Positions 340-39,412 of a DNA stretch of 43,864 nucleotides are shown here, in pieces. Source of the stretch: a virus (taxonomy: Duplodnaviria; Heunggongvirae; Uroviricota; Caudoviricetes). The notes below the pieces were generated by a model that worked only from the letters and a program-made list of their open reading frames with translations, searched no databases and was not told the DNA's origin. Position 1 is the stretch's first letter, and the number at the start of each line of letters is the position of its first letter. The translations under genes were made by a program, and so were the position numbers. The DNA lies in the IMG/VR virus record IMGVR_UViG_2698536620_000007; one strand, 5' to 3'.

Positions 340-659
340 TCCCGTTACCTTCCGGGATCAAAATTTGGCTGGTTGCCGGTATCACCGATATGAGAAATGG
401 CTTCAACGGCCTGGCTGCGAAAGTACAGACGGCGCTGAAAGACGATCCCATGTCCGGCCATGTTTTCATTTTCCGGGGCCGCAGCGGCAGTCAGGTTAAA
501 CTGCTGTGGTCCACCAGTGACGGACTGTGCCTCCTGACCAAACGGCTGGAGCGTGGGCGCTTCGCCTGGCCGTCAGCCCGTGATGGCAAAGTGTTCCTTA
601 CACAGGCGCAGCTGGCGATGCTGCTGGAAGGTATCGACTGGCGACATATAACCAGGTGA
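336..659 (+). CDS. IS66-family Orf2/TnpB protein
   Basis: 107-aa ORF with the IS66 Orf2 signature (IWLVAGITDMRNGFNGLAAKV...DPMSGHVFIFRGRSG..VKLLW...GRFAWP). Confidence 0.85.
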   Translation: MIPLPSGIKIWLVAGITDMRNGFNGLAAKVQTALKDDPMSGHVFIFRGRSGSQVKLLWSTSDGLCLLTKRLERGRFAWPSARDGKVFLTQAQLAMLLEGIDWRHITR

Positions 660-661
660 AT

Positions 662-820
662 CATTTGATACCGACAAGGGGTTTAGTGAAAGGAGGTGAA
701 ATCACCTGTAAGATACTGAAATAAAACAGGTGATGGCTAGATGTGCGGATAAGGTCTATTTGATACCGATTGTGCAATAATTAGTCATTTATTATAAAAT
801 CGGCAACTCATTTGATACTG
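662..820 (+). repeat. Left-end (attL-like) array of putative transposase-binding repeats
   Basis: CATTTGATACCGA at 662-674, TATTTGATACCGAT at 757-770, CTCATTTGATACTG at 807-820; the same core is found inverted at the right end. Confidence 0.55.
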
Positions 821-892
821 TGGTTTTAGTCTTTTAAGGCGTTCCAAACAATGCGAAATACTCGATATAGTGCAAAATGCGGGCTAATGCTA

Positions 893-1438
893 TTAACCCG
901 CTTTTGGTTCTACCGCGTTAGATTTGCGACTTCTCTCAGTTTCTTCCAAAATCTCTCTGACGCGTTCGTCAGACATACCTTCAAGCTGTAATGCAGCTAT
1001 TCTTTTCCTTCCTTCTAAGCGGATTAGATCTTGATTTTCAGGCTCTAACAACCGAGCTAAGTACTTGGCTCCATTCAGAACCAAATTTTTCGATAGCTGC
1101 TCTAAGTCTTTTTCATCAAGTGCGCTGATAATCGTCATAATTATCTTCTTGCTTTCATCTTGATTTTCCTTGATCTCACACCGATTCACTTGTGATGCAT
1201 CACTGAATCCACATAGCCACTCAACACTTACTCCTTCGATAGACGCAATCTGAAGGGCGACACTTAAGGATGGCTCAGTGCCACGAGACAGATAATTGTT
1301 TAGTGTTGAAAATGAAAGCCCCCAATCTCTTGCTGCAGCTCTGACGCTGCGGGAGCCAATCAGCCTTTTCAGACGCTCAGCAATGCTTTCTTTTCTACCA
1401 CCAGGAAAAGAAAGAGATGTTGTTGTTTGCTTGTTCAT
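893..1438 (-). CDS. Prophage repressor (Mu c-like, HTH)
   Basis: 181-aa minus-strand ORF at the left end, divergent from ner, as in Mu. HTH-like segment AARDWGLSFSTLNNYLSRG. Confidence 0.65.
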   Translation of the reverse strand: MNKQTTTSLSFPGGRKESIAERLKRLIGSRSVRAAARDWGLSFSTLNNYLSRGTEPSLSVALQIASIEGVSVEWLCGFSDASQVNRCEIKENQDESKKIIMTIISALDEKDLEQLSKNLVLNGAKYLARLLEPENQDLIRLEGRKRIAALQLEGMSDERVREILEETERSRKSNAVEPKAG

Positions 1439-1570
1439 TTTCTTTTCTTCCTATCAATTTGAAATTATTAACTTTTAGTGTTGTCAGCAACCATTGATCC
1501 ACAATAGACAAAAGAAAGATGTTTTTTTTGCTTTACATGAAGCAGAAGTGGATCAATACTTATATCAAAC

Positions 1571-1594
1571 TTGATAACTAAGTTTAGTTATCAA
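1571..1594. promoter_or_regulatory. Perfect palindromic operator candidate between repressor and ner
   Basis: TTGATAACTAA-GT-TTAGTTATCAA (11-bp arms). Inverted half-sites TTGATCCAC (1494-1502) and GTGGATCAA (1548-1556) lie upstream, each containing a GATC. Confidence 0.4.
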
Positions 1595-1623
1595 ATTTCG
1601 TAACTTTTTAGGATAGATGAATC

Positions 1624-1854
1624 ATGGCGAGAAATGAAGTTAAGCCTGATTGGCATCCTCAAAGAATTTTGGGGGAAGTCAGAGCCAGAGAAGGAAGCAT
1701 GAGGGCGCTGGCCCGTAAAGCTGGCGTGGGTCAGAACAATCTGTACAACGCGGTATACCGCCATGTTCCCAAGTATGAGGGGATTATCGCGGAATGCCTG
1801 GGGGTGCCGCCCGAGGAGATTTGGCCCAGCCGCTACATTCGTAAGGTCGCGTAA
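1624..1854 (+). CDS. ner: Ner-like DNA-binding early regulator
   Basis: 76 aa directly upstream of the transposase; C-terminal EEIWPSRY matches the Mu Ner family. Confidence 0.8.
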   Translation: MARNEVKPDWHPQRILGEVRAREGSMRALARKAGVGQNNLYNAVYRHVPKYEGIIAECLGVPPEEIWPSRYIRKVA

Positions 1855-1856
1855 TT

Positions 1857-37585: not shown

Positions 37586-37752
37586 CAATACAAACCGGTG
37601 GTGTCCTCTGCCGGTTTGACACTAATGAAAACATCTTTGCCGCTATCCAGCCATATGTAATCGCTGGATAGTATTTCGTATTCAGAAATATAGCTGCTTA
37701 TGGAGCAGTCAATCCTGCTTCCCCATCCGGGCAGGCAAATGAACCGGTATCA

Positions 37753-38046
37753 TTAGTCCGATTCACGCTTTTGTAGAATCGTTCCCAGAATGCTATACAG
37801 CTCATTAGCCTGTTGCTCCATCATTGAGACGGAGGCTATACGGTGCAAAGTGATTTCAGGAGGTGGCACACCTCCATCTTCTTGCTGTGGAGGAAAAACA
37901 TAAGATTTAATAAAAAAGTTGAAGCATATGAACTCTCCCGCACTCGAACTGTATTTGCAGGCATCTGAATAATCGGAAAAATAATCATTATAGATTTCCG
38001 CATTTTCAATCATTTTTCGATTTCTCGTCGTTACATGATTGTCCAT
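37753..38046 (-). CDS. Hypothetical protein, divergent from com (moron-like)
   Basis: 97-aa minus-strand ORF with RBS AAGAGG; embedded in an AT-rich segment. Confidence 0.4.
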   Translation of the reverse strand: MDNHVTTRNRKMIENAEIYNDYFSDYSDACKYSSSAGEFICFNFFIKSYVFPPQQEDGGVPPPEITLHRIASVSMMEQQANELYSILGTILQKRESD

Positions 38047-38238
38047 AGCAGCCTCTTACGCTGGCAATTAACCAATTGACTTCTATAAATTAGTTGATTT
38101 GTTTGCTTTGCGGTATTCAAATGTACAATCATTCAGCACTTATGCGTTACAGCACCGTTTAAAATTAGTGATCAAACTCATAAATTTTCGCTAATGACAT
38201 TTCGTGTTATTTGTTGTATCAATTAAATAAATCAAATC

Positions 38239-38255
38239 GATCGTTTTTGTCGATC
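38239..38255. promoter_or_regulatory. Tandem GATC (Dam) sites in the com/mom upstream region
   Basis: TCGATCG...TCGATCGA, two GATC 13 bp apart, about 50-65 bp upstream of the com ATG. Confidence 0.4.
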
Positions 38256-38302
38256 GATTGAGTGATAAAGATATCAACAACAAAGCAGGAGGTTATGCGG
38301 CC

Positions 38303-38503
38303 ATGTATCGAAACATACGGTGCCGACATTGTAACAAGCTACTGGCACGAGCCAGCTTCAGTTATCTGGAAGTTAAATGTCCGCGCTGTAAAACCCTCAA
38401 TCAAATCACATCTCAGAGCGCCACAGAGCACCCCACATACACAAGGAAATCCTGTCGTGGGGAACAGAAAGCAAGTTACATCCCGTATCATCAGCACGCC
38501 TGA
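38303..38503 (+). CDS. com: Com-like zinc-finger translational regulator
   Basis: 66 aa [14 protein letters not shown]...KCPRCK with Cys7/Cys10/Cys26/Cys29 spacing like Mu Com; RBS GGAGG 10 nt upstream. Confidence 0.6.
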
Positions 38504-39194
38504 ACTTATTCACTATAACGACAATATCGTCGGTTATGGCTCCCGTGAGTTACGGGTTGAGACAATAAGTTGCTGGCTGGCCCGGCTGGTCGTCGTCAAT
38601 AAACATTACAGCCATCGTTTCGTAAATAATTCCTACCTTCATCTGGGCATATTTTCAGAACGGGAGCTGGTTGGCGTAATGCAATGGGGTTATGCCCTTA
38701 ATCCAAACAATGGTGCACGCGTCGTAACTGGCACGCAGAACCGCGAATATATGGAGCTTAACCGGTTATGGCTGCATGACTGTATGCCGAGAAACTCCGA
38801 ATCAAGGGCAATCAGTTACGCGCTCAAACTAATCAGACAACTTTATCCGCAGGTGCAGTGGGTTCAGTCGTTTGCAGATGAGCGTTGTGGCTGTCTTGGT
38901 GTCGTGTACCAGGCAAGCAATTTTGATTATGTAGGCAGTCATGAAACAACATTCTATGAACTTGATGGCGAGTGGTATCACGAGATTTGCAAGAATGCAA
39001 TCAAACGAGGAGGACAGCGAGGTGAACATCTGCGGGCTAATATCGACAGAGCCAGTGTTCATAAATTCCGTCAGTTTCGTTACATCCGGTTTCTGGACAA
39101 GAGAGCCAGAAAACGCCTTAACACAAAGCTATTCAAAGTCCAGCCTTACCCAAAACCACAAACAGTTAAAACTGGTTTGAAAGAGAGTGAATGA
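38457..39194 (+). CDS. Mom-like DNA modification protein (start uncertain; the frame is open from 38262)
   Basis: Large ORF overlapping and following com at the right end of a Mu-like genome. Assignment rests on synteny; candidate starts are GTG 38262, ATG 38295 and GTG 38457. Confidence 0.45.
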
Positions 39195-39238
39195 ACGCTT
39201 AAAAACTCATTCTAAAACTCAAAAGAAAAGCGCCGATT

Positions 39239-39305
39239 TAGTATCAAATAAGTTGCGTATCGGCGTTTTTCAGCGGTATCAAATGAAATGCAAATCGGTA
39301 TCAAA
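39239..39305 (-). repeat. Right-end (attR-like) array of putative transposase-binding repeats
   Basis: TATCAAATA (39239-39250), CGGTATCAAATG (39274-39285), TCGGTATCAAA (39295-39305): the left-end core in inverted orientation. Confidence 0.55.
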
Positions 39306-39412
39306 AAAATCGCCGCGCTATAGACAGCCTAAGCGGCTGCTGACCTCCCTGACCATGCTGTAAATCTCTTTATCCTGGTTGTCACAGAATAAGCCCGGTA
39401 AAATACGGGCTT

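Follow-up and report, generated by a model that had tools for sequence, protein, structure and literature searches.

Introduction

A terminal CA dinucleotide and a fixed stagger are regarded as hallmarks of the Mu-type and retroviral-type DDE enzymes. Bacteriophage Mu is described as cutting at the terminal CA and attaching its ends to target phosphates separated by 5 bp (PMC3145075). According to a 2021 survey, every Mu-like or B3-like phage known up to then had TG-CA ends and 5- or 6-bp duplications; the same survey presented TA-TA ends as new in some Leptospira prophages and raised the question of their existence in other bacteria (PMC8705779). Here we describe the ends of a Mu-like prophage in IMG/VR virus record IMGVR_UViG_2698536620_000007 (Caudoviricetes), a stretch of 43,864 nucleotides that we call the window. 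Its termini and the target duplication that flanks it follow neither rule.

Described relatives include Mu-like phages located inside the Shiga toxin (Stx) phages of Shiga toxin-producing Escherichia coli (STEC), which resemble Sp18 of O157:H7 Sakai (PMC10132054). Sp18 is reported to be intact and packaged and not to circularise (PMC2669165). The Mu-like phage in LC727895, which lies inside an Stx phage, shares 92.7% identity with the window prophage over 92% of the latter's first 19.4 kb, and it has the same repeats, a right end reading …GCGCTATA and a 4-bp duplication. By this identity, together with the published likeness of such phages to Sp18, the window prophage appears to be a member of the Sp18-like group. 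We found no published description of the end sites, termini or 4-bp duplication of the Sp18 family, and our search for other TA-ended phages returned the Leptospira paper alone (PMC8705779). The paper on the Yersinia phages that we compare below contains no analysis of ends (PMC10434027).

Results

The prophage spans 647-39322 and is flanked by a duplicated GACA

The window opens with IS66-family tnpA and tnpB genes (Pfam TnpB_IS66 match at 336-659), and a complete Mu-like prophage lies between this tnpB and an IS66 transposase remnant at 39413-39871. We compared each prophage end by megablast with 5426 complete E. coli genomes. Homology to prophage copies elsewhere starts at 647 and stops at 39322, apart from a few bases of chance extension. 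An intact IS66 tnpB (pYB14-1) reads …GACTGGCGACAGCCTAAGCGG…, where GACA alone is common to both window flanks, and a query that joins the two flanks by a single GACA matches across the junction, over at least 80% of its length, in 3957 records. The limits of homology and the intact IS66 site thus define a prophage at 647-39322 (38,676 bp, 5'-TATAACCAGG…CCGCGCTATA-3'), with termini that read 5'-TATAACC…GCGCTATA-3' and a flanking 4-bp duplication, GACA.

Insertions in other genomes have ends of the same kind. We read the junctions of four E. coli insertions directly and obtained 15 left and 16 right ends from IMG/VR by exact-pattern scans. The IMG/VR ends break at T[A/G]TAACCAGG… on the left and at …CCGCGCTATA on the right, and the flanks of these 31 ends are all different, save two left ends with an identical flank. 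The prophage family is found at 284 places in 233 of the 5426 complete E. coli genomes. Near-identical copies are present in an sgrR-family gene, bcsA, elyC, a diguanylate cyclase gene, citD, a P2 capsid gene and others, the insertion at many unrelated sites that a Mu-like element would display. Copies of the TA…TA type are 99.6-100% identical over the end regions at several different loci and have therefore moved recently.

Six inverted repeats occupy the two ends

Each end of the prophage carries three copies of a short repeat (L1-L3 and R1-R3; Table 1). The exact 11-mer TTTGATACCGA is present at L1, L2 and R1, and L3, R2 and R3 have 1-2 mismatches to it. We identified seven copies of the 8-mer core TTTGATAC in the 43.9-kb window, at 664, 759, 811 and 20419 on the plus strand and at 39241, 39276 and 39298 on the minus strand. 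Dinucleotide-preserving shuffles contain 1.22 copies on average and 4 at maximum, and 0 of 100 reach seven. All but one of the seven are confined to the outermost 175 bp at the two prophage ends; each end has three, facing inward, and chance would place about 0.011 copies in two 180-bp end segments. A weight matrix built from the six sites gives them 24-30 bits and the next best match in the window 15 bits, although these scores are partly circular because the matrix was trained on the same sites.

A preliminary description of this DNA had proposed a Mu-like transposable prophage in IS66, with three repeats at the left and three inverted repeats at the right that mirror the spaced L1-L3 and clustered R1-R3 of Mu around a different recognition sequence. 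The first part of this proposal is borne out. The repeat arrays are present where they had been placed, and the parallel with Mu holds when the offsets are compared (see below).

The transposase of the prophage is the presumed reader of the six sites. It is a MuA-homologous DDE enzyme with Pfam matches to HTH_Tnp_Mu_1 (E=1.3e-8) and Mu-transpos_C (E=2e-17), a phrog_310 match (E=1.5e-211) and 23% identity to MuA over its full length (BLASTP E=1e-13). The N-terminal domain matches the structure of the MuA enhancer-binding domain (PDB 1tns), and a MuB-type AAA+ ATPase is encoded by the adjacent gene. We consider it highly probable that the six TTTGATAC-type repeats are the end-binding sites L1-L3 and R1-R3 of the prophage's own MuA-like transposase, in an element with ends at 647 and 39322.

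The seventh copy is a perfect 11-mer TTTGATACCGA at 20419-20429, about 430 bp from the prophage midpoint. It falls in frame within the major head gene, where it reads as the codons F-D-T-E, and two relatives that cover this position read TTTGATGAAGA and TTCGACAAGGA there. We reject a role as a central site, like the gyrase site of Mu, on the coding context and the lack of conservation in the two covering relatives. Being coding and unconserved, this copy is probably a chance occurrence.

The R3 core sits inside the loop of a hairpin that is followed by a T-run and that is probably the mom terminator. A standard terminator scan of the right end returned nothing on the plus strand, owing to the 21-nt loop, and the hairpin was identified by direct folding instead.

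The repeats covary with the transposase

In most of the sequence compared, outside one swapped block, the Yersinia phages vB_YpM_3 and vB_YpM_5 show 92-97% identity. In vB_YpM_5, this block comprises the sites of both the right and the left end, together with the repressor, ner and the transposase minus about its last 30 codons. The vB_YpM_5 transposase is 82% identical to that of the window at the amino acid level. TTTGATAC arrays are present at both ends of vB_YpM_5, with the right spacing of the window prophage (22/35 bp) and an L1-L3 distance of 146 bp, against 147 bp in the window prophage. vB_YpM_3, by contrast, encodes MuA (660 of 664 residues identical) and has Mu-type ends, with no TTTGATAC copy near either of them.

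We traced the exchange at vB_YpM_5 4586-7931 by comparison with vB_YpM_3; about 30 codons at the 3' end of the transposase gene are not part of it. In Mu, the extreme C-terminus of the transposase contacts MuB and ClpX, and in vB_YpM_5 this part of the protein is still matched to the resident Mu-type MuB. In keeping with this, the window and vB_YpM_5 transposases align only to residue 674 of 695. With the remainder of their genome a Mu chassis, 92-97% identical to the MuA-bearing vB_YpM_3, vB_YpM_5 and vB_YpM_6 are natural hybrids that acquired an Sp18-type transposase and end module.

A third lineage, found in E. coli and Shigella, encodes a transposase that is 74% identical to that of the window and has the core TTCAAGATAA, with core offsets of 18/89/141 at the left and 18/40/75 at the right. 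A protein-guided transposase scan of species-representative genomes revealed the lineage through two loci at the same site, and the ends were defined instead from E. coli strain VL40, where the element (205-34823) is inserted in vgrG; two loci of this lineage lie in a decarboxylase gene. Its ends read TATGACTAGG…GCGCGCTTTA with the 4-bp duplication TTCA. Just before R3 it has a conventional terminator hairpin, whereas R3 lies within the loop in the window prophage.

By sequence, the layout of three sites per end is kept in three lineages, and the number, orientation and spacing of the repeats are kept in relatives with diverged spacers. Comparison of the three lineages thus indicates that the repeat sequence changes with the transposase while the positions remain fixed.

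A second motif, CAGGTGA/AGGTGA, occurs four times around the L1-L2 spacer (650-734), at 653 (+), 694 (+), 702 (-) and 727 (+), in a region that includes the palindrome AGGTGAAATCACCT. The O157-type relative keeps the motif, but neither the Yersinia phages nor the third lineage have it at the left end. Its role may be to bind a host bending protein or a further phage factor.

Right ends finish in TA and the target duplication measures 4 bp

All 21 independent right ends that we read in this lineage and its O157-type relatives terminate in …TA (16 from IMG/VR, 4 from E. coli genomes, and LC727895). The right end of the third lineage is also TA, as are those of the Yersinia phages to within 1-2 nt. 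Left ends are mixed, with 11 TG and 4 TA among the 15 IMG/VR ends and 54 TG versus 6 TA among 60 E. coli records chosen as a spread sample. The common STEC/O157-type left end starts TGTAACC and thus belongs to a TG…TA element, while the window lineage starts TATAACC (TA…TA). The family does not have the Mu-like pair of termini, 5'-TG…CA-3'.

The duplication is 4 bp, not the 5 bp of Mu, in 9 of 9 paired insertions across three lineages (GACA, AACA, GACG, TAGA, TACG, AGAG, AACA, AGAA and TTCA). The LC727895 record carries a 4-bp "duplication due to insertion", which its depositors annotated independently. Pairing of left with right IMG/VR ends by genome identifier gave matches for 2 of about 6 pairs; the rest, probably from multi-copy genomes, were left unused. 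The two virion-derived Yersinia records share identical sequence as far as the predicted ends, at a resolution of 1-2 nt, and are unrelated past that point.

Alternative readings of the repeats and ends

An unlikely alternative, though the strongest of those considered, is that the repeats are operator or regulatory sites of the repressor or Ner that, for example, silence the ends or control mom. The swapped block of vB_YpM_5 carries repressor and ner along with the repeats, so covariation alone leaves either protein as a possible reader. An operator palindrome at 1567-1598 has TTGATAAC-like half-sites that resemble the core TTTGATAC, making some regulatory cross-talk possible, and R3 lies within the presumed mom terminator hairpin. 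However, each operator-region match departs from the 11-mer at 2 positions, and the 8-mer core is absent from all of them. The identical 18-nt offsets from both cleavage points, the inversion between the ends and the 22-bp R1-R2 spacing are instead the geometry of a transpososome.

The shared block and the operator half-sites weigh against assigning the repeats to the transposase, and several other points do so too. The Pfam model of the Mu end-binding domain was not detected in the transposase, though the enhancer-binding and C-terminal domains were. The link between transposase and repeats draws on covariation and position, both of them read from sequence. Finally, the virion-derived Yersinia records place the ends only within 1-2 nt.

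The operator region (1563-1605), between the repressor gene and ner, contains a 15-nt inverted repeat, AAACTTGATAACTAA / TTAGTTATCAAATTT, that may be an enhancer or an operator.

It is very unlikely that the true duplication is 5 bp and appears as 4 bp through misplacement of an end by one base. Mu and its close relatives do duplicate 5 bp (PMC3145075; PMC8705779). A one-base shift, however, gives mismatched 5-mers in 8 of 8 pairs at the right end and in 5 of the 6 checked at the left end, and the bases adjoining the repeat are different in the pairs that we read. The empty IS66 and vgrG sites contain the 4-mer once each, and the annotation of LC727895 is likewise 4 bp.

We give almost no credence to canonical TG…CA termini at 657 and 39292. 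The preliminary description had chosen these positions (TGAATC and …ATGCA) by the Mu-canonical rule, which this family breaks, and with them the last repeat would lie outside the element or be a duplicated terminal site. TG and CA dinucleotides do stand there (…AATGCA at 39292), and Mu and B3-like phages as a rule end in TG…CA (PMC8705779). Yet in every independent insertion compared, identity extends past these positions, by 10 bp at the left and 30 bp at the right, and the intact IS66 site leaves no room for additional non-phage DNA. The unoccupied IS66 site, the comparison that had been recommended as a check, places the ends at 647 and 39322 with GACA duplicated; both earlier candidates are therefore internal, and the true right end falls within the range of 39310-39350 that had been offered as a fallback. 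Ends at 657 and 39292 would give unequal distances to the cores, whereas 647 and 39322 leave 17 nt on both sides. With the ends known and a core starting at nucleotide 18 on each side, the outermost right copy is R1, in the same position as L1, and the ambiguity of the right end disappears; all six repeats are inside the element, and neither terminal site is duplicated.

Chance similarity of AT-rich sequence at the prophage edges is scarcely tenable: the 11-mer with 2 mismatches does have 21 matches, many of them scattered, against 9.8 expected, but the exact 8-mer occurs 7 times against 1.22 expected (0 of 100 shuffles), six of these copies are in the terminal 175 bp, and their number, orientation and spacing are conserved despite diverged spacers.

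A model for transposition

The essential sites of Mu are L1, R1 and R2. In the scheme that we propose, transposase monomers would bind the six sites and pair both ends in a transpososome, as in the Mu paradigm (PMC3145075). L1, R1 and R2 would form the core of a tetrameric transpososome, with the help of an operator-region enhancer recognised by the N-terminal domain. The 3' strand would be nicked after the terminal …TA-3', 17 nt outside the L1 and R1 cores, and the two 3'-OH ends would attack target phosphates 4 bp apart on target DNA delivered by the MuB homologue. Gap filling by replication or repair would then produce the 4-bp duplication, GACA in the window. The sequence comparisons themselves show the element boundaries, the TA termini, the 4-bp duplication, the conserved array of three sites per end, the covariation of repeat and transposase, and the MuA-like and MuB-like genes. 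We infer physical binding, the order of assembly, the choice of essential sites and the 4-bp stagger as the cause of the duplication by analogy with Mu. Packaging would proceed from the integrated copy, with host DNA taken at both ends, a step supported by the virion-derived Yersinia records, which diverge beyond the predicted ends (to within 1-2 nt).

Other features of the window

Table 1. Coordinates of the prophage ends, end repeats and main genes in the window
Feature	Position	Strand	Description
Left target-site duplication copy	643-646		GACA; final bases of the interrupted IS66 tnpB
Left terminal 17 nt	647-663	+	TATAACCAGGTGAATCA; cleaved 3' end on the bottom strand opposite 647
L1 core	664-674	+	TTTGATACCGA; starts at nt 18 from left terminus
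L2 core	759-769	+	TTTGATACCGA; starts at nt 113 from left terminus
L3 core	811-821	+	TTTGATACTGT; starts at nt 165 from left terminus; GCAACTnATTTGATACT common to R3
Repressor gene	893-1438	-	HTH_3/XRE type, phrog_3037; unlike the Mu c repressor
Ner-like regulator	1624-1854	+	HTH_35
Transposase	1857-3944	+	695 residues, distant MuA homologue; Pfam HTH_Tnp_Mu_1 and Mu-transpos_C; phrog_310
MuB-like AAA+ target-capture protein	4018-4959	+	Pfam Phage-MuB_C and AAA_22; phrog_296
Gin-type invertase	34256-34828
com	38303-38503
mom	38457-39194	+	Final gene before the right end; Pfam Mom E=1.6e-77; RefSeq annotation of 99.6-100% identical copies
Hairpin followed by T-run	39225-39271	+	13-bp stem, 21-nt loop; RNA fold -22.8 kcal/mol, z=-4.1
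R3 core	39238-39248	-	TTTGATACTAA; starts at nt 75 from right terminus
R2 core	39273-39283	-	TTTGATACCGC; starts at nt 40 from right terminus, 22 bp from R1
R1 core	39295-39305	-	TTTGATACCGA; starts at nt 18 from right terminus; the copy that earlier seemed possibly outside the element
Right terminal 17 nt	39306-39322	+	AAAATCGCCGCGCTATA; 3' end …TA
Right target-site duplication copy	39323-39326		GACA; IS66 tnpB resumes, stop at about 39363

The prophage also carries head and tail genes. Between gin and com, where Mu has nothing, the prophage carries cargo at 34914-38260. This cargo encodes a 684-residue protein with a sialate-O-acetylesterase-type (SASA) domain and DUF6645, a DUF826 protein (37331-37585) and a small minus-strand open reading frame, and it may function in the modification of surface polysaccharides or receptors. 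A run of 52 N bases at 32752-32803, in the tail-fibre region just upstream of gin, presumably reflects sequence that was masked or left unresolved in the source assembly.

The IS66 transposase gene to the right of the prophage (39413-39871, with an upstream part at 39364-39412) is internally deleted. An N-terminal stretch, MNDISSDDIFLLKQRLAE…, is fused directly to the C-terminal ~130 residues, which correspond to Pfam DDE_Tnp_IS66 positions 195-283 plus the C-terminal element. The empty-site query breaks in intact IS66 copies at the same point as this deletion. The query break and the domain gap thus indicate that this IS66 copy is defective independently of the prophage insertion, whether before or after it.

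Further right (39925-43566), the window contains a truncated prophage tail-fibre gene (phage_tail_N), a gene for a DUF4376 protein and, on the minus strand at 41851-43566, a gene for an IpaH-type type III effector with LRR_TTSS and NEL E3-ligase domains. The effector and its neighbours suggest that the host is a Shigella or an enteroinvasive E. coli and that the Mu-like phage lies within a prophage remnant rich in insertion sequences.

Discussion

The end arrays described here represent ordinary Mu-like architecture in a variant clade, and the general picture of how Mu-like phages function is unchanged. What is not routine is that the TG…CA and 5-bp rules are both broken and that natural hybrids with Mu exist. 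Searches based on TG…CA ends and 5-bp duplications misplace the boundaries of a common prophage family (233 of 5426 E. coli genomes), as happened in the preliminary description. In this family, a more dependable guide is to place each end 17 nt beyond the outermost repeat and to expect a 4-bp duplication next to it. The family also provides a MuA relative, active in nature, whose ends are TA, mixed TG/TA pairs included, and whose stagger is 4 bp, and the natural Mu hybrids offer a ready comparison for what sets end chemistry and stagger length.

A broader proposal, which we judge as apt to be wrong as right, is that the Sp18-type phages of E. coli and Shigella and the Yersinia hybrids form a MuA-family clade with 3'-TA cleavage (obligatory at the right end) in place of the near-universal CA, and with a 4-bp stagger where others use 5 or 6 bp. 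No earlier group of transposable phages would then have a 4-bp duplication, and none but those of Leptospira would have TA ends. Its specificity module, consisting of the end arrays, the regulators and the first ~670 transposase residues, would be portable into a Mu chassis, with the last ~30 residues matched to the resident MuB.

Comparison with known systems

The Leptospira WETA1 group has TA…TA ends like those of the window prophage (PMC8705779). Its transposases are of the B3/Tn552 family and its duplications are 6 bp, whereas the window prophage has a MuA-family transposase and a 4-bp duplication. These differences in transposase family and duplication length argue that the likeness in ends is convergent and does not reflect shared membership. 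Membership of the window prophage in the B3/Tn552 type is ruled out by the 4-bp duplication and the Mu-specific Pfam domains (family features as given in PMC8705779). The ends described here answer the question of whether TA-ended transposable prophages occur outside Leptospira (PMC8705779). The Yersinia phages vB_YpM_5 and vB_YpM_6 have ends that read TATGAAG…GCGCGCTTTA, and the rest of their genome is a Mu chassis, unlike that of the window prophage.

Mu and the window prophage share the gene order c-ner-A-B … gin-com-mom, a DDE transposase with Mu-type N-terminal enhancer-binding and C-terminal domains, the MuB ATPase and insertion at many different sites. In both, L1 is set off from L2 and L3, R1-R3 form a cluster, and a conserved half-site lies about 18-28 nt from the terminus. 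The left offsets are 18/113/165 in the window prophage (core starts) and 22/127/167 in Mu (CGAAA half-sites); measured in the same way, the right offsets are 18/40/75 in the window prophage and 22/44 in Mu, with Mu R3 at 57. The R1-R2 spacing is 22 bp in both.

The two systems differ in the orientation of R3, which is direct in the window prophage and inverted in Mu, and in the core, TTTGATACCGA versus …CGAAA(A). The 3' terminus is TA in the Sp18 type (always at the right, in ~10% of left ends) and CA in Mu, and the duplication is 4 bp rather than 5 bp. The repressor is of the XRE/HTH_3 type instead of the Mu c type, and the transposase is just 23% identical to MuA. The right terminal bases are nonetheless homologous, reading TGAAGCGGCG in Mu, TAAAGCGCGC in vB_YpM_5 and TATAGCGCGG in the window prophage, whose right end aligns with that of Mu with a G->A change at position 2.

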